Shown: piece by piece, positions 41,595-63,130 of the stretch | Layout: every line of letters begins with the position of its first letter | Numbering within the stretch: position 1 is the stretch's first letter | NCBI GenBank assembly: GCA_025061115.1 | Contig: JANZKC010000001.1 | Location: 672,001 to 736,000, forward strand | DNA: 64,000 bases | Source: Candidatus Culexmicrobium cathedralense | GTDB taxonomy: Archaea > Thermoproteota > Methanomethylicia > Culexarchaeales > Culexmicrobiaceae | Reading direction: 5' to 3' | Made by a program: the position numbers and the translations under genes | Notes under the pieces: generated by a model | What the model saw: only the letters and a program-made list of their open reading frames with translations | What the model was told of the DNA's origin: nothing | The model's database searches: none

Positions 41595-41882
41595 TCACTC
41601 CTCCAAAACCATTTCTATAGCTTTAGCTGGACACTCATTAGCGCAAACCCCACAGCCCTTACAGTAGTCATAGTCGACCTCAACGCTCATCAAGTCCTCC
41701 CCAACCCTCTTAATAGCGCCCTCAGGGCAGTAGAGCCAGCATAAAAGGCAGTGGCGGCACTTAGACTGATCAATTACAGGCTTAAATGACCTCCAAATTC
41801 CAGTTAACCCTACAGCTCCCCTCGTGGGCTTGGAAAGTGGGGTTAAGGGTAACTTTTCAATACTCAAACCTAACCCTCCCAA
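41595..41882 (-). CDS. porD: 2-oxoacid:ferredoxin oxidoreductase delta subunit
   Basis: TG.WR, C..C..CW.YCPE, DYDYCKGCGVCANECP. Confidence 0.92.
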   Translation of the reverse strand: MGGLGLSIEKLPLTPLSKPTRGAVGLTGIWRSFKPVIDQSKCRHCLLCWLYCPEGAIKRVGEDLMSVEVDYDYCKGCGVCANECPAKAIEMVLEE

Positions 41883-42436
41883 ATAACAATTGAATCGTAA
41901 GCTAATTTGGCGGCTTCAGCATTCAACTCTCCAAGCTTACCTGACCAAGCACTGGTAATCGCCTTGACAACGGAGTCTATTGAGACTATGCCGGTGGCCT
42001 TAGCTACTGCTCCAACCATGGCAGTGTTAACTGCTGGGAAGCCTGCAAAGTAGAGTCCAAGTTTAACTGCAATTCCAGTTGCATCCACAGTTCCAACTTT
42101 AAAGCCCTTGTAGCCGAGCTCCTCAGGCCTCCTCTTATCATTGACTATTAGGATGCCGCCCTTCTTCAATCCGTGGAGAACGTCAACTACACCGAATATC
42201 TTGGGGTCAAACACTACGACAACGTCAGGCTCATAGATTTGACTGTGCCTCCTAATGGGCTCGCTGGAAATCCTGGAAAACGCTTGAACAGGAGCACCTC
42301 TACGCTCAGCGCCAAACATTGGGATGCTCTGTCCCCACTTGCCCTCAATGAAGGCTGCTTCAACAAGAAGCCTAGACGCTGTAACTACTCCCTGACCGCC
42401 TCTACCATGAAATCTAACTTCGAAAAGCCGCAACAA
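41870..42436 (-). CDS. porG: 2-oxoacid:ferredoxin oxidoreductase gamma subunit
   Basis: HGRGGQG, FGAERRGAPV, NTAMVGA. Confidence 0.92.
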   Translation of the reverse strand: MLRLFEVRFHGRGGQGVVTASRLLVEAAFIEGKWGQSIPMFGAERRGAPVQAFSRISSEPIRRHSQIYEPDVVVVFDPKIFGVVDVLHGLKKGGILIVNDKRRPEELGYKGFKVGTVDATGIAVKLGLYFAGFPAVNTAMVGAVAKATGIVSIDSVVKAITSAWSGKLGELNAEAAKLAYDSIVIWEG

Positions 42437-42662
42437 ATAGTATCATTCCCCGAGCCACCCTATTTAGACAAACACCTAAAAATTTTACGATAAAAGATTA
42501 AAATCAATAGACAAAGCAACGTAATATAATATATCAGCGCTCAACAAGCACCAACCCAAACCAGCCGCACCACCCGACAATAAACCTAAACAGACCAGCA
42601 GTAATATAAATACGAAAAAACTTATCCGAAAAGGCAACAAATACTAGTCAGGTGACAGTCGA

Positions 42663-42740
42663 GCGGCGGTCGTCTAGCCTGGACTAGGACGTGGGCCTTC
42701 CACGCCCAGGACCCGGGTTCGAATCCCGGCCGCCGCACCA
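42663..42740 (+). tRNA. tRNA-Gly(TCC)
   Basis: GCGGCGG/CCGCCGC acceptor stem, TGGGC-CT TCC AC-GCCCA anticodon arm, GGTTCGAATCC, encoded CCA. Confidence 0.96.
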
Positions 42741-42867
42741 CCCAATCATCAGCTCAGCTGGTGTTTGTGGATCAGCTTCTAATAGGATTGGATGTTTAAG
42801 TTATCCATTAATTTTCTTCTCATCTGAACACTTAATTCTGAAAATGCTTGATGAAGAAAATTGTCAG

Positions 42868-42914
42868 TAGTTATATAACAACCGTCAACTTTTTTAACGG
42901 TTGTTATATAACTA
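42868..42914. promoter_or_regulatory. Perfect 18-bp inverted repeat, AbiEi-type operator
   Basis: TAGTTATATAACAACCGT-N11-ACGGTTGTTATATAACTA, ending 5 bp before ATG 42920. Confidence 0.85.
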
Positions 42915-42919
42915 TTCGT

Positions 42920-43549
42920 ATGAAACTAGCGACTAGGTACCTGCTCTCGGAGTATGGGGGCAGGGTTGTAACTAGAATTGAGCTCGTTGACCTGTGCGAG
43001 AGATTTAGGATAGACCTTGATTATTTCATAAACCATGCTATTAGGTATGGTTACGTGGTCAGGATACTCAGAGGCTTATATTACGTTAAGACTGTTGAGG
43101 AGTTCAAGCTTAGGAAGAGCCTAAACCCCTTAAGAGTACTGTCCCTTGGGATGAAGAGGCTGGGGATTAAGTGGTATTTCGGTCTTTACACTGCACTGAG
43201 GCTTAGTGGTGTAACGCATGAGTACTATGATGTAACTTTCGTGATAAGCCACTCTCTCTTTAGGCCTAGGCCTATTAAAATCGCAGGAGAGAATGTAAGG
43301 TTCGTAAAAATTAAGCCCAGTTTGGTAAACTTCGGCCTTGTCAAGAGAAAAGAGTTAGTATACTCAGACCTTGAGAAAACCCTGCTGGACTTCCTGTACC
43401 TGTCTAAGTATGGCAGGATAACGCGTAGAGAGGCTCTAGACGTACTTAGAGAGTATTCGGAGAGAGCTAGCAGGGAGAAGCTTGCCAAATATGTTATTCA
43501 CTACCCCAAAACCATCAAGGAGGTTCTAGTTGATGAAGGGATTCTCTGA
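42920..43549 (+). CDS. AbiEi-like type IV antitoxin / transcriptional regulator
   Basis: GYVVRILRGLY wHTH, YFGLYTAL..G, YSDLEKTLLDFLY; start reassigned downstream of the operator. Confidence 0.8.
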   Translation: MKLATRYLLSEYGGRVVTRIELVDLCERFRIDLDYFINHAIRYGYVVRILRGLYYVKTVEEFKLRKSLNPLRVLSLGMKRLGIKWYFGLYTALRLSGVTHEYYDVTFVISHSLFRPRPIKIAGENVRFVKIKPSLVNFGLVKRKELVYSDLEKTLLDFLYLSKYGRITRREALDVLREYSERASREKLAKYVIHYPKTIKEVLVDEGIL

Positions 43550-44447
43550 GTTCATTCAGTTCATAATAGAGAAAACAGGGCTTAACAAACCCTTGTTAGT
43601 GGAGAAAGATGTGTTACTACACTTACTGCTTTACAAGCTCTCCCAGGACGAGAAGTTCGGAAGCGAATACTTGTTTAAGGGAGGCTCGTGCCTTGTGAAG
43701 TGCTACTTCGGCTACTATAGGTTCAGCGTAGATCTAGACTTCACATACTCGCATCAAGAAAGGTGGGAAGGCCTCTCTAAGTCCGAGAGAAGGAGAGAGC
43801 TGGTCTCTGAGGCTGAGCAACTAGCTCGACTGTTAAAAGAAGCCTCCAGCGGCTTAGGTTTTGAATTTATTGCAGATATTAGGAATAGGAGGTTCGTGGA
43901 GTTCGGTAGTGGGTCTAGGCTTGTCACTTACAAGCTATATCATAGAGGAGAGTTATTGAAAATTCAGGTTAATCTGGCTGAAGAGTTGCTCTTCAAACCT
44001 CAGAAGCGTAAGGTTAGGAACCTTCTTGAGGGTATAAGCGTCACGGACGAGGAGAAAGCATACTTCAGAGAGCTTCTGGATGAGTATAAAGCGTTTGAGT
44101 TGCAGACCTACGACTTAAGGGAGATTCTCTGTGAGAAAGTTAGAGCTGTACTTACCAGGAGAGTACAGAAGCTAAGAGACTTCTACGACCTCTACATGCT
44201 TGAGAAAGCTAAGCTGAAGGTAGAAGATTATGTAGATAAAATAGTGCGTAAGCTGAAGCCCATTCTTAGATATAAGAGATACAGGGAGAATTTCGAGAGA
44301 AACAGAGGGAAGCTTAGCGTAACTCTAGAATCAATGATGAATAGTTATGAGCTGTCCCTGTTCATAAAGCAGCCAGATCGAGAAGAGTTCAGGCAATTCC
44401 TAGACGACCTAGGCGAAAAATTGAGAGAAGTCATGAAAAGCATTTAA
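43530..44447 (+). CDS. AbiEii/DUF1814 nucleotidyltransferase toxin
   Basis: VEKD, FKGGSCL, RFSVDLDF, EKVRA, RDFYDL. Confidence 0.9.
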   Translation: MMKGFSEFIQFIIEKTGLNKPLLVEKDVLLHLLLYKLSQDEKFGSEYLFKGGSCLVKCYFGYYRFSVDLDFTYSHQERWEGLSKSERRRELVSEAEQLARLLKEASSGLGFEFIADIRNRRFVEFGSGSRLVTYKLYHRGELLKIQVNLAEELLFKPQKRKVRNLLEGISVTDEEKAYFRELLDEYKAFELQTYDLREILCEKVRAVLTRRVQKLRDFYDLYMLEKAKLKVEDYVDKIVRKLKPILRYKRYRENFERNRGKLSVTLESMMNSYELSLFIKQPDREEFRQFLDDLGEKLREVMKSI

Positions 44448-44563
44448 GTTTAGGCAGATCATACAGGCAATTGCCTATTTACATTTAGATCCCCTACTCC
44501 TCTAAGTTCTGTAGTAGTTGAGAACTCTATATCTTTGCATAAGTGAAACTTAAATTCTACTTA

Positions 44564-46996
44564 TTAGAATTCTTCGTATCCTTTTAGTGGCTCTACTTTG
44601 CAGTAGTGGGATAGTAGTTGTTTCATTATTGTTCTCATTTCTGTCATGATTAGTGCTGGTGGGAGGTCGAGTAGGTCGCATACGTCTTGCCAGCTTTTTG
44701 CCTGGAGTATTTTTGCTATTAGCATTAGTTTCTGATGTTTGGTTAGTTTGGGCCGCCTTTCTTCTATGTCGTAGAAGTAGCATTTGGCAAGCTCATGTGT
44801 TCCGTCTACTACTCCCTCTAGAGTCATGGGTCCCCATGCGTAGATTCTGAGCCTTTCGATTTGAACTTTGGTGAGGCGTGGGGTGATTTCTTCTTCGACT
44901 GGCATTCCCCATCCTTGGAGCAGTAGGTAGGCTATTTCGGTTTCTAGGTCTCTGTAGGTGTCGTGTAGTGAGTTTATTAGTCTTCGCCTGAACTCCTTGT
45001 TGGCTTCTAAGACGTATTTTGCGACTTCATCCTTTAGTGGCTTTATTACTATGACGGTGTACTCTCCGCTTATTGGGTTTCTGTCTGGGCTTATGTGGAT
45101 TGGTATGAAGCCGTTTTTGATCCAGAAGCGTAGTAGGCTTTCTGATACTCCGAATCCAGCGCCTACCCAGTCGTATCCTTTCTCCTTGGCTTCCCTGCAT
45201 ACTTCTCTTAGCATCATCGATCCTATTCCTCTGCCCATGAGTTGGATGTGGGTGGCGATTCTAACTATTCTCCATCCGACGTATTTGCCGAATTCGGTTG
45301 TTCTGAAGTGCTTGATGAATCGGTCTGGAATTATGTTTCCTTGTATTTTTGCTCCTAGTAGGAGTTCTTTGCCCACTTCTTTGGGGATGGGCCCTTCCTC
45401 GGCTAGTTCAATGCTGCAGACTATTTTGCCTGTTGGTGTTTTTAGCGCTCTTATTTCGTGGTGTGGAGCATCTGCAATCATTGCTAGGTCTTTGGGCTGA
45501 TTTCTGTAGTGGGCTAATACGTAAATGCCTATGAACTGCCTGAGCTCGTTGTCGTTTTTGAAGAATAGGTCTTCAAGGTTTAGCTTGACGTAGTTGAGCT
45601 TGAGTTCCTTAATGAACTTCAAGTCTTCTTCAGTTATGTCTGCAGGCTCAGCGTCGAGCATTAGCGTGTCGAAGAGCCACCTCTCAATTGGATCGTCCCT
45701 AGCATATCTGATGGGCTCAGTCATTTCGTACTCTACGACTTTGGTTTGCGGATCTTCCTTTAGGGCTTTGAGGAAGCGAACTGAGAATCCTCTTCCCGCA
45801 CCTTCATATCCGTGAATTGTGGATGAGAATACTAGCCGCCTAAACGCCCTCCATATGGCGTATAGCATTGGAACTGGCAGGCCGGCCGCCTCATCAACAG
45901 CTACTACGTCTGCCCTCCTGGTAACCGCGTCGAGAGGCTCCCTATACTCGATTATTATCTGCCTAGTTTCAATTCTGACGATCATGCCTCCTCTTCGGAG
46001 AACTTTAACGTTCTTGTAGCCCAGCGCTTTGAATGCTTTGAGAGCTAACTCCATTAATGGCTGAATGTTTGTTGGGCTGGGAGCGGTGACCAGCACTTTT
46101 ACTGGAATCTTCTTTAAGCTTATAGCTCTAGCTAAGGCGACAAGCCCTATGCCCACCGAGCAGGACTTGCCTCTACCCCTATCTGCAGTTATGACTACAG
46201 CGAGTCTTCCCTTGGGCCTGTCAATCAGCTTTTCGAAAAGCCTTAAAACTTCAACTTGATCTTGGGTTAAAGCTAATCTGAATATTTTAAGTGAAAATGG
46301 GCTTCTCTTGGGGAGCTTGATCTTCTTGCGCTTCAACTTAACTGAGCGCTTAACGCCTATGAGCTTGAAGGGCTTTATGAAGCAGCCTTCGTCCGAATCG
46401 TAAACTCCAATACCATCATATTCGAGGAGCTTCTTGATGAAGCGCCTAGTGAATATGTCTCTAACGGTCGAAACGGGGTATTGTATGGTTGCAAGCTCAC
46501 GCCTAAATCTCGTCACCACCCTAGGCCAAGACTTGATGGATGGAGCCAGCAGAACTATTAATCCGCCTCCACGGACAATTCCAGTCAATCTGCCCACGTC
46601 ATTTGGATTTAAGTCGTTGATCAAGTCGAGGACTGCAATATCGAAGGTCGCTCCCAGTACGGTTTCAGTCTCCTTGTAATTGATGACTTTAAGTTCAACC
46701 CTACCATCGAGCTCGTCGGCAAACTCCCCTACGAGTTGAAGCCTACTTGCAGCGTCATCGTAAAATGAGTGATAGGCATATAGCACTTCAACCCTATCTT
46801 TATGCCTTAAAATTGAATTGCAAGCTTCTACGAGCATCTCCCTCGCTGCCGTACAGAGCTTAACTTGATCATCGCCTGCGACAACTAGCATGCGCCTATG
46901 ATTAATTGCTGCGGCTTCCTCCAAAACTTGGCTCAGCGTAACTCTAGTCTTCACTGAAGCACCTCCAAAAGCAGTGGATGTCGCTGCTAATTGCAC
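44564..46996 (-). CDS. tmcA: tRNA/rRNA cytidine N4-acetyltransferase TmcA/Nat10
   Basis: TADRGRGKS, DEAA, STIHGYEGAGRGF, HYRNQP.DL, RIVRIATH...GRGIGS. Confidence 0.95.
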   Translation of the reverse strand: MQLAATSTAFGGASVKTRVTLSQVLEEAAAINHRRMLVVAGDDQVKLCTAAREMLVEACNSILRHKDRVEVLYAYHSFYDDAASRLQLVGEFADELDGRVELKVINYKETETVLGATFDIAVLDLINDLNPNDVGRLTGIVRGGGLIVLLAPSIKSWPRVVTRFRRELATIQYPVSTVRDIFTRRFIKKLLEYDGIGVYDSDEGCFIKPFKLIGVKRSVKLKRKKIKLPKRSPFSLKIFRLALTQDQVEVLRLFEKLIDRPKGRLAVVITADRGRGKSCSVGIGLVALARAISLKKIPVKVLVTAPSPTNIQPLMELALKAFKALGYKNVKVLRRGGMIVRIETRQIIIEYREPLDAVTRRADVVAVDEAAGLPVPMLYAIWRAFRRLVFSSTIHGYEGAGRGFSVRFLKALKEDPQTKVVEYEMTEPIRYARDDPIERWLFDTLMLDAEPADITEEDLKFIKELKLNYVKLNLEDLFFKNDNELRQFIGIYVLAHYRNQPKDLAMIADAPHHEIRALKTPTGKIVCSIELAEEGPIPKEVGKELLLGAKIQGNIIPDRFIKHFRTTEFGKYVGWRIVRIATHIQLMGRGIGSMMLREVCREAKEKGYDWVGAGFGVSESLLRFWIKNGFIPIHISPDRNPISGEYTVIVIKPLKDEVAKYVLEANKEFRRRLINSLHDTYRDLETEIAYLLLQGWGMPVEEEITPRLTKVQIERLRIYAWGPMTLEGVVDGTHELAKCYFYDIEERRPKLTKHQKLMLIAKILQAKSWQDVCDLLDLPPALIMTEMRTIMKQLLSHYCKVEPLKGYEEF

Positions 46997-47193
46997 GAAA
47001 AATTACGAAAACAATCTTAAATACTTGTGGCGATAACCGAGCCCAAGTAGGCATAGCCAATCAACTTAAAGTTCAAGAGGGCAGCAACAATCACCCTCAT
47101 GAAGTAGCTTGCAGAGTTTGAATCGACAATGGAAATGCTGAGCGACCAGATTAAATTAGAATTTAAGAAGTAGTACTAGTAGCATTAGGTGGC

Positions 47194-49009: not shown

Positions 49010-49755
49010 CTAGAATGTGAATCTTCCGCCATTAATTCCCAGCGTCTGTCCAGTTATGGATCGCGATCGCTCTATGGCTGGGAAGTAGACTGCTTCAGCT
49101 ACATCTTCAGGTTTTGCAATATCCTTTAGTGGATGTAGATCTGCGACTCTTCTCCTCTTCTCAGGCGTGTCTATGAAAACTTTAACCATTTCAGTTTCAA
49201 TAAAGCTTGGCGTCACGGCGTTAACGCGTATCTTAGGAGCCAACTCAACCGCTAACCTCCTGGTTAACCCGATGACTCCAGCTTTAGATGCGCAGTAAAC
49301 TGCTGATGCAACTACATTCCCGTCTGACCAGCAATACTCGTCATGTTCACTATGCTGGCCCATGGAGCCCTCCTCAATAGGGGTAGGAAGTACTTTGTAG
49401 TTAGGAAGGCTCCAGTCAAATTAATCCTAATAACCCTCTCTCCCAATCCTCAAGCCTCGTCTCATCAATAGTTCCAAAGAATACTGCACCTGCATTATTG
49501 ACAAGCACGTTCAGGTAGGGAATTCTCCTCGAAACTTCATCGAAGCCCCTCTTAACGCTACTCTCACTAGATACGTCCATTTGGATGTAGAAGCCATTTG
49601 CACCCATCTCCTCAATGAGCTTCAACGTCTCGTCAGATGCACTCCTATTCCTATGATATGAAAAGGCGACGGTGAAATTCGACCTGGCAAATCTAAGCAC
49701 TATGGCGCGTCCAATTCCTCGATCGCCACCAGTAACAAAAACGTAATTCTAGTCA
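49010..49755 (-). pseudogene. FabG-like short-chain dehydrogenase with several frameshifts
   Basis: FVTGGDRGIG, VNNAG, YCASK, IRVNAV, ITGQ..INGG spread over different frames. Confidence 0.85.
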
Positions 49756-49983
49756 AAATCCTACTAAATAAAAAGTAGTACGTATGGAAGTTAAATGCTT
49801 GATGAAATGCTTACAGCGCGAAAACCCATAAACTTAACCCATCAACCTAATGGCATCAGCAGCTTGCCAGGAAATTGAGGTTCAAGATAGAAAAGTTTAT
49901 GAAATTAATGAGGGGACTCTAACAATAGACCGAAACCGCAGGGGTTAGGAGTAACACCATTAACGTGATTAAGTAACGCATTT

Positions 49984-50085
49984 GCCGCGGTCGTCTAGCA
50001 CGGCCAAGGATATGGGCCTCTCGAGCTCGTGTGAGCTGCGCGGGGAAAGCCCAAGACCCGGGTTCGAATCCCGGCCGCGGCACCA
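49984..50085 (+). tRNA. tRNA-Glu(CTC) with 24-nt intron at 37/38 (50024-50047)
   Basis: GCCGCGG/CCGCGGC acceptor, anticodon CTC 50020-50022, BHB-compatible intron, T-arm, CCA. Confidence 0.93.
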
Positions 50086-50106: not shown

Positions 50107-51018
50107 TCATGCGCTTAGGATTATTGGCCCCTTAATGTCGATTTTGGCAATTACTATCTTGTCTCTGCGGAAGTGCTTTGTGAATGCGTTGTATACGCTT
50201 TCCAGGTTTTCTTTGGGGGTTAGTGCGTGGATTGCTTCTCCAATCATGTTTTGGGTTGCTCCTACTGCTCCCGCTTTCTCGGCTTCCTGAATTGCTTTTT
50301 TGACTCTGCCTGTCATGAACCCGGATTTGATTGCGAACTTCTTGCATTGCTTCATGAAGTTTTCCGGCGTTGGTTCCTTCATGATGTGCCGGAGCGTTTC
50401 TTTACCCAGTTTTTTGATTTGTTGGAGTTTAGCTGGGTTGCTTAGTACTTTTTTGGTTGGTATTGGCCCGTAGGCTGCTGCTATGATGTAGTAGTCATCT
50501 GTGGATATTGGTATTCTGTCTACTATTCCTATTCCTGGCGCTCCTGGTTTTACTGCTATTCTGAAGCCTCCCCCTATTATTCCCGTCACTGTTCCTAGTC
50601 CTGTTTTGCACTGGAGGTCTGCTAGATGCGCTGCTCTTGCTATTTGTAGGTATGTCATGTTTAGTTTGAGGGCCTTTGCTAGGGCGAGCGCTATGGCTAG
50701 GGCGCTTGCTCCACTTGTGCCGAATCCGCATTCTATTGGGACTTGGATCTTCTGCTTAACGACGATCCTGCATGGCTCCAGGTTGGGTGGCAACATCAAT
50801 TTTACCAGCTTGCCTAATATGCATGAGTCAACTTTGACGTTGTTGATGTAGTTTTCCAGGGTTGTTTTCTCGGCGTTGAAGCTTATTTCTAGGTTTACTT
50901 GGACTCCGCGACTTATCGTGAACCCGCCTCCCCACGCTCCGCACTTCAATGGGTCTTTAACGATGTGAGGGGCGAAGAAGCTTGAGATTGCCGCAGGAGA
51001 GAATGTTTCCACGTTCAT
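50107..51018 (-). CDS. pok: Pantoate kinase (GHMP family)
   Basis: P..ISSFF, PIECGFGTSGA, AH.AD....TGLGTV, GAPGIG, QNMIGEAI. Confidence 0.88.
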   Translation of the reverse strand: MNVETFSPAAISSFFAPHIVKDPLKCGAWGGGFTISRGVQVNLEISFNAEKTTLENYINNVKVDSCILGKLVKLMLPPNLEPCRIVVKQKIQVPIECGFGTSGASALAIALALAKALKLNMTYLQIARAAHLADLQCKTGLGTVTGIIGGGFRIAVKPGAPGIGIVDRIPISTDDYYIIAAAYGPIPTKKVLSNPAKLQQIKKLGKETLRHIMKEPTPENFMKQCKKFAIKSGFMTGRVKKAIQEAEKAGAVGATQNMIGEAIHALTPKENLESVYNAFTKHFRRDKIVIAKIDIKGPIILSA

Positions 51019-51122
51019 TTCACATCTAGTTAATCTCGATTTTAATTATAACTTGATTGGTAACCTATGTTGAGATGTATGGTTATAGGATGAAGTTTTG
51101 TTATTATAGTTGGCGCTGAGGG

Positions 51123-51641
51123 TTACTGGTAATTAATTCGCTGAGTTTTGTAGTTTATAGGGTCTAGATCATTTGAATGCTCCTTTTCTCGGCAGTATTT
51201 TTGATGTTCTTGCAGTTGTTGGAGCTTGTCTTTTAATTGACCTATTTTTTCTTTGAGTTGCTTTGCCTTTTGGATTATTTGTTGTGTTGGTTCCTTTAGC
51301 CGTTCTATTTGGCTATCTAGTTGTTGGAGCTGCTTTTGCAGTTCTATTATTTCTGTTCCTGTCTCGTAGAAGTGCTTTTTGAAGTCTATGAGGAGTGCGT
51401 AGCTCACATTTCTCCTTAATATTTGGGTGAGATTCTCCCTTTGCTGGATTGTTTGCTGGATGTTTTGGAGCTTATCTTCAAGTTCCTCTAGGTTTTGAAT
51501 TATTGTTGGCAGTAGATCTTTCTTTATCTTTTCTAGTAGCTGCCTCTCTCTTTTCTCTACTCTTTCTATTGATAGGTACATGTAGATGAGTATTATTAGT
51601 GCTGCTAATACTACTGCTATTGTTGATGGCTGCAAATCCAC
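51123..51641 (-). CDS. Membrane-anchored coiled-coil protein
   Basis: N-terminal TM helix, Q/E/K-rich heptads. Confidence 0.65.
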   Translation of the reverse strand: MDLQPSTIAVVLAALIILIYMYLSIERVEKRERQLLEKIKKDLLPTIIQNLEELEDKLQNIQQTIQQRENLTQILRRNVSYALLIDFKKHFYETGTEIIELQKQLQQLDSQIERLKEPTQQIIQKAKQLKEKIGQLKDKLQQLQEHQKYCREKEHSNDLDPINYKTQRINYQ

Positions 51642-53939: not shown

Positions 53940-53994
53940 GGCTCAGACGGTTGATCCTTCTTCACCATTCAGTGGGACTAGGCTCTTCATCGCC
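53940..53994 (-). ncRNA. Box C/D guide sRNA (dual guide; predicted target 16S rRNA 5' region)
   Basis: GGC-G-ATGAAGA(C)-GCCTAGTCCCA-CTGA(D')-ATG-GTGAAGA(C')-AGGATCAACCGT-CTGA(D)-GCC; canonical spacing, terminal stem. Confidence 0.9.
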
Positions 53995-54066: not shown

Positions 54067-54702
54067 TCAGGCACGTACCTCTTCATTAACAGCGACCATG
54101 AAGTCACTGAAACCGAGCTGAGCGCCATGGCTAGCCCTGCAAGTGCAGGGTACAGCATCCCAGCCGCGGCGAGGGGTATGAGAATCACGTTGTACGCAAA
54201 TGCCCTTCCTAATTCCAACCATCACTGCAGTTGGAGTAGCTAATCCTAAGGCGCATGGGCATGCAACCACTAGAACCGCGACCGAAGAGAGAATTGCCTT
54301 CGCGAATTCTGTACCCATCAAGCTCTAACCTGCAAATGTCGCTATTGAAATTGCTATGACTATGAAGGTGAAGTAGCCAGCCACCTTATCCACCAACTTC
54401 TGTATTGGAGGCTTGCTCGCCAAAGCCTCCTCCACTAGGCTTACTACCTGCGCTAGAAATGCGTCGCTTCCAACTCTCGTAGCTCTAATTTTCAGCACGC
54501 CCTCCCTATTGACAGCCCCTCCAACAACTTCGTCGCCAGGCTGCTTCTCAACTGGAATTGATTCTCCAGTAACCATCGACTCGTCAACCGCTGAATGCCC
54601 CTCAATAACTAATCCATCAACTGGAATCTTCTCTCCAGGCCTAACTATGACTATGCCGCCTACCTGAATCATCTCGGTTGGAAGCTCAACTCCAACACCC
54701 AA
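54067..54702 (-). pseudogene. copA: P1B-type copper ATPase with large internal deletions
   Basis: [33 protein letters not shown], then a direct jump to [22 protein letters not shown]; DKTGT and N domain absent. Confidence 0.88.
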
Positions 54703-54776
54703 TCACTACATTAACATCGTTATGTTAAAAATTGAAAGTCAGTAAGATTAAGTTTTCACCAAATAGGCCAGTTAAC

Positions 54777-55367
54777 TTAAGAGTAGAATTCAGGGCTAAT
54801 CTTCCCAACCAACGCGTACGTTAAAGCAGCCTCCCAAGCCATTTGCCTAGTCAAAAGGCTCTTGGTTAAGATTCCAATTGCTCCAATCGTCTTCTTCGTA
54901 TCCCGCATTCCAGTTATGTCGTCGATCACTGGGCCCAATTCCTCCCCCCTTAAAACCCTCTCCACAACGATGCTGGGAAGCTGCATGTACACGCTCGACC
55001 CCAAGTAGAAATAGCCATCCCTATCGACGGCAGCGCACCAGCCCGTCAGAAACCACCTGCCGAACTTCCGCGCAATTCCCCCCTCCATTCCAATTCCAAG
55101 GTCAGCCTCAACAGCCTCTAAAGCTCGAACAGCCCTATTCTTGGCTCCCCTCACAATTTCCTCCTCACCTATGGGGGTGTGAGAAACACCCGACTCAACT
55201 TTGACCGGAATGACCTCGAAGCCATTTCCATAAATTCTCTTCACGACATTTCTGGCAGCTGCAATTTTAACTGGATTTGTGGAGCCAACTGCAATCCTCA
55301 CTTCAGTCACCAAACTAAGTATCAAAGAAGTGGTCAAAACAATTACTGTCGCCCCTGCTGGCTTCAA
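54777..55367 (-). CDS. yjjX: Inosine/xanthosine triphosphatase (DUF84)
   Basis: VGSTNPVK, SGVS, GAKNRA, GMEGG, GAIGILT; true start probably near 55310. Confidence 0.88.
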   Translation of the reverse strand: MKPAGATVIVLTTSLILSLVTEVRIAVGSTNPVKIAAARNVVKRIYGNGFEVIPVKVESGVSHTPIGEEEIVRGAKNRAVRALEAVEADLGIGMEGGIARKFGRWFLTGWCAAVDRDGYFYLGSSVYMQLPSIVVERVLRGEELGPVIDDITGMRDTKKTIGAIGILTKSLLTRQMAWEAALTYALVGKISPEFYS

Positions 55368-55587: not shown

Positions 55588-55675
55588 GCGGGGGTGGCCG
55601 AGTCAGGTCAAAGGCGCAGGGCTTAGGACCCTGTGGCGTAGGCCTGCGTGGGTTCGAATCCCACCCCCCGCACCA
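55588..55675 (+). tRNA. tRNA-Leu(TAG)
   Basis: GCGGGGG/CCCCCGC acceptor, CAGGG-CT TAG GA-CCCTG, long variable arm, CCA. Confidence 0.96.
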
Positions 55676-57702: not shown

Positions 57703-57915
57703 CGAAAGCCCCAGAAGAGTAGTGCTTTGAAATATAAAAGCATTTTACCATGATGCTGAACCCATGCTTCAGGGAAGTTGAAGCACTAGTGAAAGCGAGG
57801 AAACCTTACGCCTAGAATTTATAATGCTTCAGCTAGATTTAATATTGAGCTTATTTAATTACAGAAAATACTTTAGGATGAAAGTTGAGTTGTGTATTGA
57901 GCAAGGTGTTACTTC

Positions 57916-59187
57916 ATGAGCGAGAAGTATAAGCGGAAGTACACGTTCGGAGAAGACTATGGAACCAGCTTCTATAAGTTCGGCCCAATAACTTTAGGCG
58001 AAAAGCCTGAAGTTGTGGAGAATAGGGGGTACTTCCCGGATAAGTCTTCGATGATGTATAGGATCATGGGGGTTCCAAGGGAAGTCATTGTCGGAAAGAA
58101 GCTGCCCCTCTACTTGGAGACTAGGGAAGACTTGTCCTCAAGATTAATCTACCCCATGAGGAATGGCGTGATAGGAAAGGGCGATGAAAAGGCTTGGAGA
58201 GTCATATATGAAATAACTAGGTATGGCTTGGAGATGTTTAGGCCCATCAGCCCCGACTTTAAGGGCTTCTACGTCTGCGCATCCCTCTCATCCGTTGCGC
58301 CTAGATACATGTATGAAAAGCTATTTGACATCCACAGGAGAATCGACGAGGAGACGCGATTAGTTAAAGCTGTCACGATAATCCCTCAACCATTAGCGGT
58401 GGCCATAGCTCATAAGGCTCCCACATGCGTAGTCATTGAAAGCGGACATGGAAACACCCAGATTTGCCCCATATCAAGATATCCAGTAAGAGGAGCGATC
58501 GTCGCATTGAATAGGGGCGGAGGCGACGCCGACGCCATAACAAGCCAAATACTATACGACGCTGGCTACGGAGACATCGCCAAGGAAGAGGCAATAGTGA
58601 GGAGAGTCAAGGAGGCCATTGGAGCCATCCCCAGAAATTTGGATGAAGCCATAAGAGAGGCAAAGAGAAAACCAGAGAAGTTCAGAGTTAAGTACAAGAT
58701 CCCGGGGACGCGAATAGAAATAGACTTAGAAAAAGACTCGTGGACTAGATTCCTAATTGGAGAGTACATATTCAACCCCAATAATGAAATTTTCGAAAGC
58801 TACTTCAAGAGGGGGCTACCCAAGCCCAAAGATGTCAAGATAGGCGAAGTACTATTTAAGGGAATGATAGACTTCGGAGAGGCAGTCATAGAGGCAGTGG
58901 AAAAATGCCCAATAGAGCTTCAGCCATACCTATACGAGAGGATACTGCTATCCGGAGGAAACTTCCAGTGGAAAGTGCCGCCGAAATTCGAGGATGTAGC
59001 TGTGGATGCCCCCACCAAGATAAAGCTCCTCCTCAAGGAGAAGGGCGTCGAGGAAGTAGTTGTGGAAATGGCGCCCGACCCAAAATTCAGCGTTTGGAAG
59101 GGATGCATAGTTTACGGCTACGCCGTCCCAGAAGATTACGCCTGGTCTTGGGATAAAATGGAGGGTTGGATAAAGCTCCATGATTGA
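57916..59187 (+). CDS. cren-1: Crenactin (archaeal actin)
   Basis: KYTFGEDYGTS.YKFGPITL, YPMRNG, PQPLAVAIA, ESGHGN, ALNRGG, WTRFLIGE, ILLSGG, SVWKG..YGY match recalled Pyrobaculum crenactin motifs. Confidence 0.93.
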   Translation: MSEKYKRKYTFGEDYGTSFYKFGPITLGEKPEVVENRGYFPDKSSMMYRIMGVPREVIVGKKLPLYLETREDLSSRLIYPMRNGVIGKGDEKAWRVIYEITRYGLEMFRPISPDFKGFYVCASLSSVAPRYMYEKLFDIHRRIDEETRLVKAVTIIPQPLAVAIAHKAPTCVVIESGHGNTQICPISRYPVRGAIVALNRGGGDADAITSQILYDAGYGDIAKEEAIVRRVKEAIGAIPRNLDEAIREAKRKPEKFRVKYKIPGTRIEIDLEKDSWTRFLIGEYIFNPNNEIFESYFKRGLPKPKDVKIGEVLFKGMIDFGEAVIEAVEKCPIELQPYLYERILLSGGNFQWKVPPKFEDVAVDAPTKIKLLLKEKGVEEVVVEMAPDPKFSVWKGCIVYGYAVPEDYAWSWDKMEGWIKLHD

Positions 59188-59938
59188 AGATATCCAAGAT
59201 AAATTGAGAACCTACTTCGCATCGGAGGGATATATAGAGAACCCCATCGAAGAATTTTCTGAGCAATATAAGCCGGACATGGCGTTTAGGAGGAGCCGCG
59301 AAACCCTATTTGTGTACATCATGGACCTGAGCTCGCTAAGCAGCAAAAGCGCTCTCCTCAAGAAAATCATGAGAATGGTCGCCGCAAAAAAGCACTGCAA
59401 CCTAATCTACGCTGCAGTTCCAAAGATCATAGCAACCACTCTCGACAGCGCAGCGCTGGAGGAGCATGGAATAGGAATGCTAATCGTCGATGACGATGTC
59501 CGCGAAGTGCTGCCTGCAAAATACAATGAGATGGAGGAGAGATCAGCTGAAGTTGAGGAAGTTGCAAGGAAAATAAGCGAGCTTGAAGCAAAAATTTCAC
59601 GCCTAGAGAGAGCCATTGCAAACATGGAAGTAGCAATCTCCAGAATAGAATTTAGCCAGCCGCAGCAGAACATCATAGGCGTAATCGACAGGATAAGCGA
59701 TCTTGAAAGGGAGCTGAGCAAAGTTAGGGATGAAATTCTGCTGATAAATCGAAGGCTAAACAAACTTGAAGAAAAGGTGCTTAAAGCTCCGAAAGCCAAG
59801 AAGCCTCCTCCCCCCATAAAAGCGCCTCAAGCGAGCTTTGAAATTAAAAAGGTCGCTGAAGAACTACCTTCATTCTTCAAGGATAATCCTTGGGTGAGCA
59901 TCCTCTCCTCGAGAGGTAAAAGCGTTGAAGAAGGCTGA
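59180..59938 (+). CDS. rkd-2: Arcadin-2-like crenactin regulator
   Basis: Directly after crenactin; globular N-terminus, coiled coil, Pro linker, C-terminal DNPWVSILSSRGK similar to the arcadin-2 crenactin-binding helix (NEWVKILRSKR as recalled). Confidence 0.75.
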   Translation: MIEDIQDKLRTYFASEGYIENPIEEFSEQYKPDMAFRRSRETLFVYIMDLSSLSSKSALLKKIMRMVAAKKHCNLIYAAVPKIIATTLDSAALEEHGIGMLIVDDDVREVLPAKYNEMEERSAEVEEVARKISELEAKISRLERAIANMEVAISRIEFSQPQQNIIGVIDRISDLERELSKVRDEILLINRRLNKLEEKVLKAPKAKKPPPPIKAPQASFEIKKVAEELPSFFKDNPWVSILSSRGKSVEEG

Positions 59939-60200
59939 GCCACTTAGAGCCACTCCAATTAGGAGAATAAGCGTTGTAGTTGATCTTGAGGACCCCTTAG
60001 CGCCAGCCCTCACAATAGATGAATTTGAGAAGCTGTTTAATAGGGAGCCGGAGCCTCCAAGATATAGAATTGCCAGCATAGAAGTGCTAACCTGCCCAGA
60101 AGATAACCACGTAGTTCTAGTCACCGAATGCGCCAAGTGCCCTAGATTCATTAAGAGAGTTGAAGATGTGATTTACTGCGCAGCAAAGCGAGTTAGGTGA
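59925..60200 (+). CDS. Small Cys-containing arcade protein (probably arcadin-3)
   Basis: Third overlapping gene of the operon; CPED...ECAKCPRF...IYC; identity by synteny only. Confidence 0.55.
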   Translation: MKKAEPLRATPIRRISVVVDLEDPLAPALTIDEFEKLFNREPEPPRYRIASIEVLTCPEDNHVVLVTECAKCPRFIKRVEDVIYCAAKRVR

Positions 60201-60202
60201 CT

Positions 60203-61435
60203 TCAACTACTCATTGAAGTGAATTTGTAGGCTAGTAGAGCGTAAATTTTGGTGAAGATCTTAAGCACTTCTATCTCAACGTTTTCATTTGGGCCATGAG
60301 CATTTCCAGTCTCATGATCTCCAGGTCCAAAACCGCAAATAGTCGGTATTCCAGCCCTAATTATCAAGTAGTGGGAGTCATTTGTTCCATATGCGCCCCT
60401 AAACTGCAGGTCTTCTCCAGTAACACACCTAGTTGCCCACTTAGCGCATTCAACTATTTCATCATCTTCAGCCACTTCAGCAGGCGGACAACTAGTAATT
60501 ATTTTAGCCGAAGCCGAAAACTCCGGCTCTCCACTCTTAAGCTCTTCAAAAAGCTCATTCAACTGCTTCAGCACGCCTTCACAGCTTAATCCAGGATTAA
60601 TTCTAACGTCTAAGTGCGCAGTGCACTTATCCGGTATGACGTTCGTCTTAACGCCTCCCCGAATTATAGTTCCCGGCGATATCGTGGGCGGAGGCAAGTA
60701 CTTGTGCGGAGGGCACTTAAGCTTGAAATCCTTCAAAGCTAAAAGCAGCATCGCCATGTGAAGGACAGCATTAACTCCAGCCCAAGGCTTACTTGCGTGT
60801 GCAGCTCTACCTCTAGTTTCAACTTCAACCCAACACATCCCTCTAACCGCAGGCCTCAAGCATATCACTTTATTGAAGACCGAAGCCTCAGCTACAACTG
60901 CGCCATCAGCTCTAGCATATCCCTTCTCAACCAAATACCCAGTTCCAAGGCGGCCGCCAGCCTCCTCATCTGCAACTGCGTGAATAATTATATCACCTTT
61001 AAGTTGAACTCCAGAATCCACTATAGACTTAGCTGCACCGACAATAGCTGCAATAGCCCCCTTCATGTCAGCAGCGCCGCGACCATAAATCTTACCGCCC
61101 TCAACTACGCCTTCAAACGGGTCAAAACGCCAATTCTCCAAATCTCCGGGAGGAACAACATCTAAATGCCCATTAAATAGCACGTTTTTCCCATCGCCCT
61201 CGCCCTTCAGCACTGCAACAACATTAACCCTCCGCTCCTCCGGAACTACGTACTCAACCTTAAAGCCAAGAGCTTCAAGCTCACTGCCAAGCAAGTACGC
61301 CACATCAGACTCATTGCCAGGCGGATTAACGCTGGGAACCCTAATCAACCTTCTAGTCAAATCAACAACGTAACCTCCATTCAACTCAGCACTCTTAAGA
61401 AGAGCACCCACAATCATACTCCCAACCAAAAACAA
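60203..61435 (-). CDS. M20 metallopeptidase (ArgE/DapE family)
   Basis: FNGHLDVVP, GRGAADMKG, DEE, HAS.P..GVNA, AHGPNE. Confidence 0.92.
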   Translation of the reverse strand: MFLVGSMIVGALLKSAELNGGYVVDLTRRLIRVPSVNPPGNESDVAYLLGSELEALGFKVEYVVPEERRVNVVAVLKGEGDGKNVLFNGHLDVVPPGDLENWRFDPFEGVVEGGKIYGRGAADMKGAIAAIVGAAKSIVDSGVQLKGDIIIHAVADEEAGGRLGTGYLVEKGYARADGAVVAEASVFNKVICLRPAVRGMCWVEVETRGRAAHASKPWAGVNAVLHMAMLLLALKDFKLKCPPHKYLPPPTISPGTIIRGGVKTNVIPDKCTAHLDVRINPGLSCEGVLKQLNELFEELKSGEPEFSASAKIITSCPPAEVAEDDEIVECAKWATRCVTGEDLQFRGAYGTNDSHYLIIRAGIPTICGFGPGDHETGNAHGPNENVEIEVLKIFTKIYALLAYKFTSMSS

Positions 61436-61569
61436 TTACATTGCCAAACATATTTATCAATGACTATAACGTCCTAACATATTGTCAATTTGAGGCAACC
61501 CACCACAACTTCACAAATAGTAAAATTTATGAAAGAACGCAGCCACTCTAAGAATAGCCTAGAGAGGCA

Positions 61570-61665
61570 GCCCCCGTCGTCTAGTCCGGCCAAGGATATG
61601 GGCCTTTCGAGCTCTATCCGCGAAGAAAGCCCAAGACCCGGGTTCGAATCCCGGCGGGGGCACCA
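61570..61665 (+). tRNA. tRNA-Glu(TTC) with 18-nt intron at 37/38 (61610-61627)
   Basis: GCCCCCG/CGGGGGC acceptor, anticodon TTC 61606-61608, BHB helix CTTT/GAAG, CCA. Confidence 0.94.
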
Positions 61666-61864
61666 CTCCTTTCCATATGTTTGCTGGAGCTGGAATAGTT
61701 GCTGTAAGTGTGTTTATTTGGTTCATGGTGTACGGTAGTTTTAATGAAGAGTGATGAGTTATGATTGTTTGCTGAGAAATTTATTTTGAGGTGAGCGGGT
61801 GAGAAATTTATTTGTTAATTAAGTTAAGGTTTTGGTGGTTTAGATTTTAATTGGAGGTAGTGGT

Positions 61865-63130
61865 GTGGATAACTTTGCTTTGTTTTTGGAGTGCTGTAAG
61901 TGCGGAAGAGAGTTCTCCGTAGATAGTTTTGCTTTCAGGTGTTTGGATTGTAATGAGCCGTTGGAAGTGGTTTACGATTATGATTTTTTGAAGTCAGCTA
62001 TTTCCAAGGAGGTTCTGGCGAAAAGGCAGTGGAGTTTGTGGAGGTATTGGGAGCTTTTGCCAGCGAAAGCTCAAAGGAATATCGTCACGCTTGGTGAGGG
62101 AGGTACGCCGCTTATAAGGAGCACGAGGTTATCGCGTGCTCTTAGCGTTGAGGAGCTTTATTTTAAGGATGAGGGTAGGAATCCGACTGGCTCGTTTAAG
62201 GATAGGGGTTCAAGTGTTGGTGTGAGTAAGGCGTTGGAGGTTGGCGCGGGAATTGTGGGCTGCGCATCTACTGGCAACATGGCGGCTTCATTGTCGGCCT
62301 ATGCAGCTAAAGCGGGATTGAAGTGCGTGATCTTAATTCCCCATGGAACTCCTGTGGAGAAGGTTCTTCAAACACTGTATTATGAGCCGATAACTTTGGC
62401 CGTCGATCTTCCATACCCCGAGTTATATAGGATGTCCTTTGAAATGGCTAAGGAATTCAACGTCTACTTAGTGCACTCCGACAGCCCGATGAGAGTTGAG
62501 GGGCAGAAGACAGTTGCATTTGAAATTTGCGAGCAACTGGATTGGAGGGCGCCTGACATTGTTGTCGTGCCGACAAGTAGTGGAGGCAACTTCAGCGCAA
62601 TTTGGAAGGGGTTCAAGGAGTTTTACGAGCTGGACTTAATTGATAAGCTTCCAAGAATGGTCTGCGTTCAGAGCGAGGGTTGCGCGCCGATTGTAGAGGC
62701 GTTCAAGAACAGGAGCGAGCTCAAGCCCTGGCCGAAGCCGCAGACCATTGCACATTCAATATCGAATCCAAATCCGATCTTGGCAAGTGGGAGAAGAGTT
62801 TTGAAAATTTTGGATGAGTGCGAGGGGTTGGCAATTGCAGTGTCTGATGAGGAAATACTTGAGGCTCAGAAGCAGTTGGCAGTTATGGAGGGATTGTTTG
62901 TTGAGCCTGCATCTGCAGCTACAGTGGCAGGCTTGAAGAAGTTGGTGGAGAAGGGTGTAATTGATGGGGATGAGAAAGTTGTATGTGTTTTAACTGGATT
63001 TGGCTTGAAGGACACTAAAGTGATTAAGAGGCATGTTAAGGAGCCAATCAGTGTGAAATCTTGGAGTCAATTTAGAGAAATTTTGAATGCCTTGATGAAA
63101 GGTGTGAAAGCTGCACCATCAACCCGCTGA
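61865..63130 (+). CDS. thrC: Threonine synthase family PLP enzyme with N-terminal Zn ribbon
   Basis: LGEGGTPL, NPTGSFKDRG, ASTGN, EGQKT, EPASA, LTG.GLK. Confidence 0.85.
   Translation: MDNFALFLECCKCGREFSVDSFAFRCLDCNEPLEVVYDYDFLKSAISKEVLAKRQWSLWRYWELLPAKAQRNIVTLGEGGTPLIRSTRLSRALSVEELYFKDEGRNPTGSFKDRGSSVGVSKALEVGAGIVGCASTGNMAASLSAYAAKAGLKCVILIPHGTPVEKVLQTLYYEPITLAVDLPYPELYRMSFEMAKEFNVYLVHSDSPMRVEGQKTVAFEICEQLDWRAPDIVVVPTSSGGNFSAIWKGFKEFYELDLIDKLPRMVCVQSEGCAPIVEAFKNRSELKPWPKPQTIAHSISNPNPILASGRRVLKILDECEGLAIAVSDEEILEAQKQLAVMEGLFVEPASAATVAGLKKLVEKGVIDGDEKVVCVLTGFGLKDTKVIKRHVKEPISVKSWSQFREILNALMKGVKAAPSTR

Follow-up and report, generated by a model that had tools for sequence, protein, structure and literature searches.

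Introduction

In bacteria and some archaea, replication-associated skew flips at the origin and leaves lasting steps over hundreds of kilobases. In mitochondria, strand-displacement replication leaves a single gradient that spans the replicon on one strand of a 16-kb genome, and the light-strand origin is located in a tRNA cluster. Here, we report strand-skew flips centered on tRNA genes in the archaeon Candidatus Culexmicrobium cathedralense. The analysis started from a stretch of 64,000 nucleotides (contig JANZKC010000001.1, positions 672,001 to 736,000; referred to here as the window), in which four tRNA genes (i.e., tRNA-Gly, tRNA-Glu(CTC), tRNA-Leu, and tRNA-Glu(TTC)) lie between positions 41600 and 62300. 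A first-pass annotation, made from the letters of the window, had described switches of the plus strand from A+C to G+T richness at such genes. We confirmed that the association between tRNA genes and skew is far beyond chance, both genome-wide and across genomes. It is a real, lineage-specific mutational footprint and not a product of chance, amino acid content, or foreign DNA.

The flips resemble origin-associated skew in that the strand running 5' to 3' away from the flip carries an excess of G+T, most strongly at third codon positions, and a 600-kb skewed domain exists in the same genome. Unlike origin skew, they decay in about 1 kb, number dozens, and respect the ends of transcription units. 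As in mitochondria, the asymmetry of fourfold sites (A+C versus G+T) is near saturation, with a discontinuity at a tRNA-associated site. The mitochondrial asymmetry is graded by single-stranded time. In contrast to the single mitochondrial gradient, the archaeal pattern consists of many two-sided, kilobase-scale dipoles on a 2-Mb chromosome. Compositional breaks beside tRNA genes are also a feature of tRNA-targeted islands, and two such inserts are present in this genome; unlike islands, the tRNA genes of the window have neither an att repeat nor an integrase, and their skewed flanks are conserved housekeeping genes.

At eukaryotic tRNA loci, transcription-associated mutagenesis affects the flanks, more strongly on the 5' side than on the 3' side, and has been attributed to exposure of the non-template strand together with hybrid formation (Thornlow et al. 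2018, PMC6130373). The archaeal pattern is likewise a tRNA-centered, deamination-type pattern in neutral flanks in which the 5' flank exceeds the 3' flank. The eukaryotic footprint covers ~20 to 40 bases on each side and is measured as divergence and single-nucleotide polymorphism density, while the archaeal one is a two-sided shift in equilibrium composition over ~1 kb (PMC6130373). In addition, archaeal third positions reach 90 to 100% G/T, protein genes of either orientation are affected, and the effect belongs to one order. Archaeal TATA/TBP promoters of Pyrococcus furiosus fire both ways in vivo and in vitro, with one TATA box and an antisense start ~50 nt upstream, such that head-to-tail neighbors are met in antisense (PMC6640164). 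The available part of that work concerns transcripts and not mutation or composition, and it contains nothing on tRNA promoters or this lineage (PMC6640164). According to the accessible part of a 2026 survey, from which the word tRNA is absent, archaeal mutational skews are generally weak (PMC12999951). A literature search, beyond the reach of which lay subscription-only journals and supplementary files, found no account of tRNA-centered skew flips in prokaryotes. The flips fall outside the classes of origin skew, islands, and eukaryotic-type tRNA mutagenesis, each of which fails at least one defining test.

Keto skew flips at tRNA genes throughout the genome

The assembly (G000; 1.98 Mb, 25 contigs, 41% G+C; the window corresponds to C1:672001-736000) was analyzed with 2,067 genes that were called with a simple home-made caller based on codon usage and that cover 86.5% of the genome. 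The 44 tRNA genes identified by Rfam served as the set for genome-wide tests. We define k3 as the keto skew (i.e., [G+T-A-C]/N) at third codon positions of called genes, and D as k3 to the right of a site minus k3 to its left; D has the same value on either strand, and D > 0 corresponds to the polarity of a replication origin. In the gap-based test, D was computed over third codon positions in 600 bp on each side, measured from the edges of the flanking genes.

The gaps containing tRNA genes had a mean D of +0.274, with positive values in 24 of 34. After stratification by orientation, the excess at tRNA-containing gaps of at least 200 bp was +0.172 (p = 0.0012) in this genome and +0.221 (p = 0.0002) in G006, a genome from another family of the same order. 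With 1-kb flanks, the 36 scorable tRNA genes had a mean D of +0.232 (27 positive), compared with +0.044 (standard deviation [sd], 0.213) at 1,074 intergenic sites. The use of all nucleotide sites, for which gene calls are unneeded, yielded positive values at 36 of the 44 tRNA genes with 600-bp flanks (mean, +0.154; 1,135 comparison sites, +0.039; sd, 0.115). When tRNA genes were merged into clusters, mean D was +0.429 versus +0.066 at 500 bp (n = 23) and +0.229 versus +0.038 at 1 kb (n = 33), with resampling p values of ≤5e-5. Upward flips with D ≥ 0.6, the sharpest in the genome, number 24; seven of them are located within 300 bp of an Rfam tRNA, and an eighth is ~170 bp from a long-intron tRNA-Leu(TAA) (ARAGORN and Rfam); about 0.4 would be expected by chance. 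Equally sharp downward flips number 9. The association proposed in the first-pass annotation thus holds genome-wide in comparison with random intergenic sites, and, as described below, the polarity is not explained by the direction of transcription alone.

The flips in the window

All seven hand counts of the first-pass annotation were exact on recount. On the plus strand, A+C accounts for 51 of 60 nucleotides at 42541-42600, 25 of 30 at 49821-49850, and 46 of 60 at 61381-61440, and G+T accounts for 40 of 60 at 44641-44700, 28 of 60 at 46561-46620, 47 of 60 at 50401-50460, and 45 of 60 at 61681-61740. Among 60-nt segments taken genome-wide (step, 10 nt), A+C counts of at least 51 occur in 0.03%, A+C counts of at least 46 in 0.31%, and G+T counts of at least 45 in 0.46%.

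The sharpest flip within 41600-62300 is at the intron-containing tRNA-Glu(TTC) (61570..61665, plus strand; ARAGORN and Rfam), with D = +0.87 (99.6th percentile) and a peak at C1:733450. To its left, an M20 peptidase gene identified by Pfam (60203..61435, minus strand) faces the tRNA gene with its 5' end; its coding k3 in 68-codon bins from that end is +0.65, +0.41, +0.29, +0.29, +0.35, and 0.00 (whole gene, +0.33). To the right, a plus-strand gene for a PALP-family enzyme is followed by genes of both orientations (61865..64000), with coding k3 values of +0.34 (plus-strand gene), -0.51 and -0.41 (minus-strand genes), and +0.58 (next plus-strand gene). The plus strand is therefore rich in G+T regardless of gene strand, and the profile extends to +3.5 kb.

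The other flip described at a tRNA-Glu gene was equally borne out. The intron-containing tRNA-Glu(CTC) (49984..50082, plus strand; Rfam, 47.2 bits), which is overlooked by ARAGORN with default settings and recovered with its intron option (-i), has D = +0.73, i.e., the 99.3rd percentile of non-tRNA gaps. On its left are a short-chain dehydrogenase fragment (Pfam) and the A+C-rich spacer that includes 49821-49850 (together 49416..49983), and on its right are a GHMP-kinase-like gene and a DUF948-like gene (weak match; 50107..51641, minus strand). The coding strands of these two genes are A+C-rich (k3, -0.54 and -0.41), i.e., the plus strand is G+T-rich; in a 200-bp profile, the G+T bias persists in weaker form to ~53400 through genes of both orientations.

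At tRNA-Gly(TCC) (42663..42740, plus strand; ARAGORN; Rfam, 59 bits), D is +0.20, i.e., the 85th percentile of non-tRNA gaps. The intergenic stretch 5' of this gene (42437..42662) holds the tract with 51 of 60 A+C, and keto skew over 42401-42600 is -0.44. Farther left, the genes for the delta and gamma subunits of pyruvate:ferredoxin oxidoreductase (PFOR; 41595..42436, minus strand; Pfam Fer4 and POR) have coding k3 values of +0.19 and +0.07, leaving the plus strand mildly A+C-rich at third positions. An AbiE-type toxin-antitoxin pair (42848..44447, plus strand; Pfam AbiEii) with little skew (plus-strand k3, +0.15 and +0.03) separates tRNA-Gly from tmcA, the gene for tRNA cytidine acetyltransferase (44564..46996, minus strand; Pfam). 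Coding k3 of tmcA in 100-codon bins, 5' to 3', is +0.12, -0.04, -0.18, -0.12, -0.30, -0.64, -0.70, and -0.62, and the plus strand is accordingly G+T-rich at third positions in the tRNA-proximal 3' half and fades toward the 5' end, as the first-pass annotation had read it. At tRNA-Leu(TAG) (55588..55675, plus strand; ARAGORN and Rfam), where that annotation had seen no clear flip, the flip is weak (D = +0.26 with 1-kb flanks; left, -0.23; right, +0.03). An E1-E2 ATPase fragment and an NTPase gene on its left (54325..55367, minus strand; coding k3, +0.16 and +0.24) leave the plus strand moderately A+C-rich; this locus is unscored in the gap-based test since a weak open reading frame (ORF) was called across the tRNA gene.

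The flanking genes are housekeeping genes according to Pfam (i.e., PFOR subunits, TmcA, GHMP-kinase-like protein, M20 peptidase, and PALP enzyme). Because plus-strand k3 switches sign at the tRNA genes whatever the strand of the flanking genes, the polarity belongs to the DNA strand and not to the coding strand.

Extent, base spectrum, and orientation of the effect

At fourfold sites, keto skew on the strand pointing away from tRNA genes is +0.23 at 0 to 250 bp, +0.19 at 250 to 500 bp, and +0.08 at 500 to 1,000 bp; beyond 1 kb it is +0.06, +0.04, +0.02, and +0.02, and then +0.01 at 5 to 8 kb. The fit gives a decay length of ~665 bp, with a signal that can be followed out to ~2 kb. No lasting step is left, and the skew returns to the local background within 1 to 3.5 kb, giving a sawtooth with a sharp rise and a gradual return. 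The gradients run inside single housekeeping genes.

Within 250 bp, the fourfold composition of the away-pointing strand is T 0.427, A 0.233, G 0.186, and C 0.154, compared with T 0.325, A 0.318, G 0.178, and C 0.179 at 5 to 8 kb. The shift thus consists mostly of a gain of T and a loss of A, with C down and G slightly up. This spectrum, which is an equilibrium composition and not a set of observed mutations, fits deamination-type damage to an exposed single strand, one of the processes that the first-pass annotation had put forward. Within 250 bp of tRNA genes, third codon positions have the highest skew (+0.234), followed by first (+0.099) and second (+0.072) positions, a ranking expected if protein constraint filters a mutation pressure. 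As had been claimed, housekeeping genes have altered synonymous codons over ~1 kb.

In G000, the upstream side of tRNA genes is more strongly affected than the downstream side (+0.26, +0.25, and +0.11 versus +0.17, +0.09, and +0.03). After background correction, flanking genes pointing away from a tRNA gene show +0.138 (n = 27), compared with -0.005 at other gaps (n = 1,557), and genes pointing toward a tRNA gene show +0.258 (n = 31), compared with +0.057 (n = 1,382); the direction of transcription alone therefore does not account for the polarity. In skewed domains (36 clusters in G000 and G006), subtraction of the background leaves +0.123 on the right (p = 0.001) and -0.063 on the left (p = 0.12), while the effect is symmetric in unskewed regions (-0.097 and +0.109).

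Related genomes, controls, and orthologous loci

The relatives included G001 (same genus), G003 (same family) with its congener G004, and G006, and the identical pipeline was applied to two controls, i.e., G022 (same class, another order) and G040 (another class). D was positive in 29 of 35 tRNA gaps of G006; in G003, 15 of 19 values were positive. Over 538 kb of contiguous G006 sequence, 31 of 35 tRNA clusters had D > 0 at 1 kb (mean, +0.164 versus +0.046; n = 239; p = 5e-5), the upstream side again exceeded the downstream side, and a sawtooth was visible at each tRNA. In the controls, 7 of 18 values (G022; mean D, -0.013) and 7 of 15 values (G040; mean D, -0.001) were positive. The pattern thus recurs in relatives within the order and not in the outgroups. 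Because the same pipeline finds nothing in the two controls, the tRNA effect is specific to this archaeal order and is not an artifact of the method. The controls are also without large-scale skew, and their per-gene k3 has an sd of 0.068 and 0.059, compared with 0.27 for coding-strand k3 in G000. Loss of repair genes was considered as a cause of the lineage specificity; uracil-DNA glycosylase, endonuclease V, and RNase HII were all matched above cutoff in G000, the searches yielded no endonuclease V in G006 and no RNase HII in G003 (92% complete), i.e., there is no consistent loss.

Both adjacency to tRNA genes and the sign of the skew are kept across families at 57 to 65% protein identity, as seen for TiaS and the M20 peptidase. 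The M20 peptidase gene lies beside tRNA-Glu in three of five genomes; in G009 and G010 (59 to 61% identity), the same adjacency is accompanied by the same gradient, which is strongest at the tRNA-facing 5' end. The gene for TiaS, the agmatidine synthetase that modifies tRNA-Ile2 (CAU), was found in 8 of 12 genomes searched (C4:17262-19037 in G000; L111-L118 in seven relatives). It is located directly upstream of, and co-oriented with, tRNA(CAT) in seven of these eight; on the coding strand, A+C richness holds for all eight (-0.16 to -0.72). TiaS may be encoded beside its likely tRNA substrate.

The tmcA orthologues, which share 71 to 74% protein identity, have silent sites at opposite extremes. 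Where the 3' end is proximal to the tRNA gene, coding k3 at that end is -0.70 (G000) and -0.76 (G001), whereas the first 100 codons have values of about +0.94 to +0.98 in G003 and +1.00 in G004. In G003, the gene across a 240-bp gap from the 5' end of tmcA reads -0.86 (i.e., D is about 1.8), and the gap contains an intron-containing tRNA gene on the minus strand, with an N-masked 3' end, that was read by eye and overlooked by ARAGORN and Rfam. The G004 contig begins at tmcA, and an upstream tRNA gene is assumed there from G003. The sign of the skew follows the position relative to the tRNA gene and not the gene itself. Just past the tmcA stop codon of G003 and G004, an sR1-like match (below the Rfam gathering score) is present on the opposite strand.

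A diverged AbiE pair was present at the tRNA-Gly/tmcA locus in one of the five relatives' loci, that of the same-genus G001. The little skew of the pair and its presence only in a same-genus genome fit a later arrival. An ancestral adjacency of tRNA-Gly to the 3' end of tmcA before the AbiE insertion found no backing, as the two were directly adjacent in none of the four family or order genomes without AbiE.

Foci outside tRNA genes and large-scale skew

tRNA genes are the strongest foci but not the sole ones. Among 58 foci with D ≥ 0.45, 11 are at tRNA genes and 47 are more than 600 bp from any tRNA; the first-pass proposal of tRNA loci as two-sided, strand-specific foci therefore stands, with the reservation that most foci are elsewhere. 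At gaps without tRNA genes, mean D rises with gap length, from +0.004 at 1 to 50 bp (n = 528) and +0.032 at 50 to 150 bp (n = 459) to +0.085 at 150 to 300 bp (n = 226) and +0.122 at ≥300 bp (n = 210); the control genomes have no such trend. The 47 non-tRNA foci occupy long gaps (median, 289 bp versus 48 bp) of every orientation class. In non-tRNA genes of at least 1,200 bp whose 3' end faces a long gap, coding k3 minus background moves from -0.075 to -0.224 (n = 28; p = 0.003) and, in a second set, from -0.033 to -0.162 (n = 25; p = 0.002); among genes of this length, 5' ends show a weak effect (+0.027) and operon-internal genes a flat profile (n = 85; p = 0.65).

A scan for enriched 7-mers in the 47 foci returned AT-rich words only and no shared motif, and Rfam matches at 16 non-tRNA peaks comprised one extra tRNA, one weak small RNA (sRNA), and nothing else. 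The 5S rRNA gene adjoins two tRNA genes and is inseparable from them as a focus. A strict box pattern identified seven candidate C/D-box sRNA genes (zero in a reversed-sequence control), five with D > 0, which are too few to conclude from. Candidate C/D-box sRNAs below the Rfam gathering scores occur at window positions 53941-53994, L163:3930-3984, L162:2577-2632, and L011:1637-1691 (all on the minus strand; E values, 1e-6, 4.5e-7, and 4.8e-5 for sR1-like and 0.0013 for sR47-like candidates); there is no flip at the sR1-like match at 53941-53994. A 638-bp gap between convergent genes for DUF2070 and HypF proteins (C1:830981-831618) has D = +0.75 and GC-rich, structured-looking stretches, and it has no Rfam match at E ≤ 0.1.

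Skew also exists at a much larger scale. Over C1:80-685 kb, plus-strand k3 is -0.29 in plus-strand genes and -0.22 in minus-strand genes, and it is similar over C2:10-510 kb, while it is ~0 over C1:710-843 kb, C3, and C4; the range 41600-62300 lies in the unskewed part. In non-coding DNA, the skew amounts to ~40% of that at third positions within the large domains and to 40 to 60% beside tRNA genes on the upstream side, and the T/A component is dominant in both the large-scale and the tRNA-local skew. Because codon-position ranking, non-coding share, and T/A dominance agree, we infer one mutational (chemical) process acting at two scales. The replichore-scale skew of about -0.25 ends inside the window, with a boundary at ~13000-21000 that has no orc1/cdc6 gene. 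In G006 (C1:123300-661499), the large-scale skew ramps from -0.25 to +0.25 over a tRNA-rich 150-kb zone (270 to 420 kb), drops sharply at ~533 kb, and then climbs to +0.4 at 640 kb. The orc1/cdc6 gene at ~225 kb of this genome has no domain-level flip, and a tRNA gene 0.7 kb away gives a short local dip; a second orc1/cdc6 gene, at ~485 kb, lies inside uniformly positive skew.

Tests of inserted DNA and classical origins

Inserted DNA as the cause, i.e., the integration hotspots of the first-pass annotation, was rejected, as the interiors of inserts are without the expected polarity and the strongest foci are flanked by housekeeping genes with conserved synteny. In blastn searches with the 44 tRNAs, att-like partial copies were found at C4:3915-3944 and C4:61963-62010 only; partial matches to tRNA-like genes outside the 44-gene list were set aside. 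Two tRNA genes, neither in the window, thus carry inserts bounded by a copy of their 3' end (30 nt and 48 nt; C4:3915-17262 and C4:57452-61963). The DNA just inside has a skew of ~0 beside tRNA-Met and of the opposite sign beside the tRNA at C4:57350, and skewed DNA is found at, near, or beyond the far att copy of both inserts. The four tRNA genes of the window have no att duplicates at E ≤ 1e-3 (blastn), no repeat of at least 12 nt of tRNA-Gly occurs in 42761-45200, and Pfam identified no integrase among the 28 genes called in 41595-63585, in which only the AbiE pair is mobile-looking.

A classical oriC was likewise rejected, since no orc1/cdc6 gene is near the tRNA genes of the window and no lasting skew step is present. 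Matches of the Cdc6_C domain above the Pfam cutoff are restricted to C4:102133-102411, C2:285981-286268, and C1:648717-648917, and C25 has one weak match; none of these is in window positions 41600-62300. Two of the three orc1/cdc6 genes are inside uniformly skewed DNA and have no flip, and the best one lies among clustered tRNA genes where a local flip is present. Pausing of forks at tRNA genes, their collapse with break-induced restart, and end resection were rejected by reasoning on polarity, as each should enrich keto bases on the toward-pointing strand on one side of the tRNA gene or both and so predicts D < 0.

Possible mechanisms

The keto-enriched strand is the one that runs 5' to 3' away from the gap. 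It would be the more often single-stranded one, losing A and C and gaining T and some G as heat-driven deamination of amino bases and depurination act on it. On the basis of the G+C content of the 16S rRNA (65.7%) and tRNAs (68%), which we take as a mark of such a lifestyle, the organism is a thermophile or hyperthermophile; intron-bearing tRNA genes and a crenactin gene are also present. We tentatively favor, with somewhat less than even confidence, heat damage to a strand bared when transcription without translation proceeds outward from tRNA promoters and the ends of transcription units. Strong two-directional archaeal promoters, such as those of tRNA genes, may fire antisense upstream, in the manner of the P. 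furiosus promoters, which would supply the outward antisense transcription that this explanation requires; read-through past tRNA and gene ends may add further outward transcripts. Free of ribosomes, these transcripts could form RNA:DNA hybrids that shield the template and leave the other strand bare when hot. tRNA genes would stand out as being among the most strongly transcribed untranslated units. Where local values exceed the domain level, we guess at a self-reinforcing, hybrid-prone state. Transcription is favored over forks because the effect respects transcription-unit ends and reaches into ordinary genes chiefly through their 3' ends, because genes pointing toward a tRNA gene are more affected than those pointing away, because the upstream side, where no terminator would halt antisense firing, is the stronger one, and because the skew leaves no lasting step.

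Several observations weigh against outward transcription as the cause. Thirteen of the 47 non-tRNA foci are between convergent genes and would need read-through or unannotated promoters. The genes for RNase P RNA and signal recognition particle RNA are not foci; neither is the rRNA operon, whose upstream flank reaches merely +0.17/+0.11, and a ribosomal-protein operon (C4:34-40 kb) has no coding-strand skew. As the ribosomal-protein and rRNA operons are little affected, strong transcription alone is insufficient, and the restriction to untranslated transcription is an assumption. Saturating antisense transcription through the essential TiaS gene (coding k3, -0.72 over 1.4 kb) would be costly. 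The stronger upstream side could also stem from turnover of DNA inserted downstream of tRNA genes, the gene calls are home-made, and the significant shift on only the background-opposing side in skewed domains fits a replication-coupled model slightly better.

That model would place local starts of DNA synthesis at tRNA genes and other AT-rich gaps, primed by RNA:DNA hybrids, recombination, or tDNA hairpins that form on an exposed strand, in the manner of the mitochondrial light-strand origin. Short outward forks could bare the away-pointing strand, or priming at tRNA genes could shorten the exposure of the toward-pointing strand. We consider local starts a serious rival, though a less likely one; they would account for the origin polarity, the preponderance of sharp upward over downward flips (24 versus 9), and the sawtooth. 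They would also account for the restriction of the effect to genomes with strong replichore-like skew, the match of base spectrum and non-coding/third-position ratio to the large-scale skew, the shift that is significant only on the background-opposing side in skewed domains, the gradual ramp through the tRNA-rich zone of G006 (270 to 420 kb), and the tRNA cluster, with its local flip, around the best orc1/cdc6 gene of G000. However, there is no lasting step, and the background is regained within 1 to 3 kb even in arms with 17 tRNA genes. A fork should be blind to gene orientation, yet entry from 3' ends far exceeds entry from 5' ends and the insides of operons are flat. Local skew of up to 0.9 to 1.0 is far above the domain level of 0.25, and two of three orc1/cdc6 genes have no flip, which leaves the replication reading of the large-scale skew uncalibrated. 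Replication initiation, as put forward in the first-pass annotation, is accordingly not established by a skew that is back to background in 1 to 3 kb and enters genes mainly from 3' ends. It is unlikely that the chromosome of this order is copied not only from a few fixed origins, with tRNA genes or AT-rich foci starting or priming DNA synthesis; if tRNA-primed synthesis did occur, the kilobase-scale sawtooth and the 150-kb ramp would be a fossil record of the mode of replication.

A mosaic of foreign or rearranged DNA, in which segments with different histories abut at tRNA integration sites, could draw on the two att-marked inserts, the AbiE pair beside tRNA-Gly, the extremely skewed low-GC glycosylation island of the window (see below), and the differences in skew domains between related genomes. 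Random joins would yield both polarities equally, whereas positive values were obtained in 24 of 34 gaps in G000 and 29 of 35 in G006, with 24 upward versus 9 downward flips. The gradients within single housekeeping genes, the adjacency and sign kept across families, the insert interiors that lack the expected polarity, and the missing att duplicates of the window's four tRNA genes make a mosaic highly improbable. Selection on RNA seems improbable, though not to that degree; G-poor, A/C-rich transcript ends might aid factor-dependent termination or limit harmful antisense pairing, in keeping with the concentration of the effect at 3' ends facing long gaps, its absence inside operons, and the lower skew of non-coding sites than of third codon positions. 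Such selection would not lead one to expect that the same gene reverses sign with its position relative to a tRNA gene, that whole genes of 1.4 to 2.4 kb are affected, that spectrum and codon-position ranking match those of a 600-kb skew independent of orientation, or that the effect is absent in outgroups. The analysis did begin with segments picked by eye, codons made up of only A+C or only G+T encode particular residues, and the gene calls are home-made; against chance, amino acid composition, or an analysis artifact, the signal is strongest at third positions and fourfold sites, the analysis free of gene calls agrees (36 of 44 positive), resampling yields p ≤ 5e-5, and the same pipeline is null in two control genomes, such that an origin of this kind has next to no probability.

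Implications

Against the generally weak skews of archaea, this order has third-position skew of ~0.25 over hundreds of kilobases and local values of up to 1.0. If the flips reflect strand exposure, base composition would provide a map of single-stranded DNA time at the resolution of single genes in organisms mostly known from metagenomes, and antisense transcription, RNA:DNA hybrids, and replication starts in archaea would become testable from sequence alone. Methods for codon usage, horizontal transfer, and phylogeny that assume stationary composition will be misled in these genomes, and skew-based origin prediction will pick up tRNA genes.

Other features of the window

A 10.4-kb low-GC glycosylation island (20978-31426), with all genes on the minus strand, encodes GT1, GT2, and GT4 glycosyltransferases, an NAD-dependent sugar epimerase/dehydratase, UDP-glucose dehydrogenase, an Ig-like surface protein, and toxin-antitoxin proteins. 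Its plus-strand third positions have a skew of +0.74 (fourfold T, 0.66; G, 0.25; A, 0.05; C, 0.03), with a sharp left edge at ~21.0 kb and a rightward decay across 31.6 to 35 kb. Genes of the defense or toxin-antitoxin type are found at 1297-2985, 7542-8203, 25038-27466, and 42848-44447, i.e., AAA_14/DUF4143, a PIN gene with a small partner ORF, an AAA_21 ATPase with a DUF4276 protein, MazE, and AbiE. Split or truncated genes include a short-chain dehydrogenase in two ORFs (49010-49700), E1-E2 ATPase fragments (54067-54702), and a phosphodiesterase in two ORFs together with a PHP-domain fragment (6041-7050 and 10501-10803); two of them adjoin tRNA genes. At 57916-60200, two to three small genes that have no Pfam match lie behind a crenactin gene (Pfam Actin) in the same orientation.

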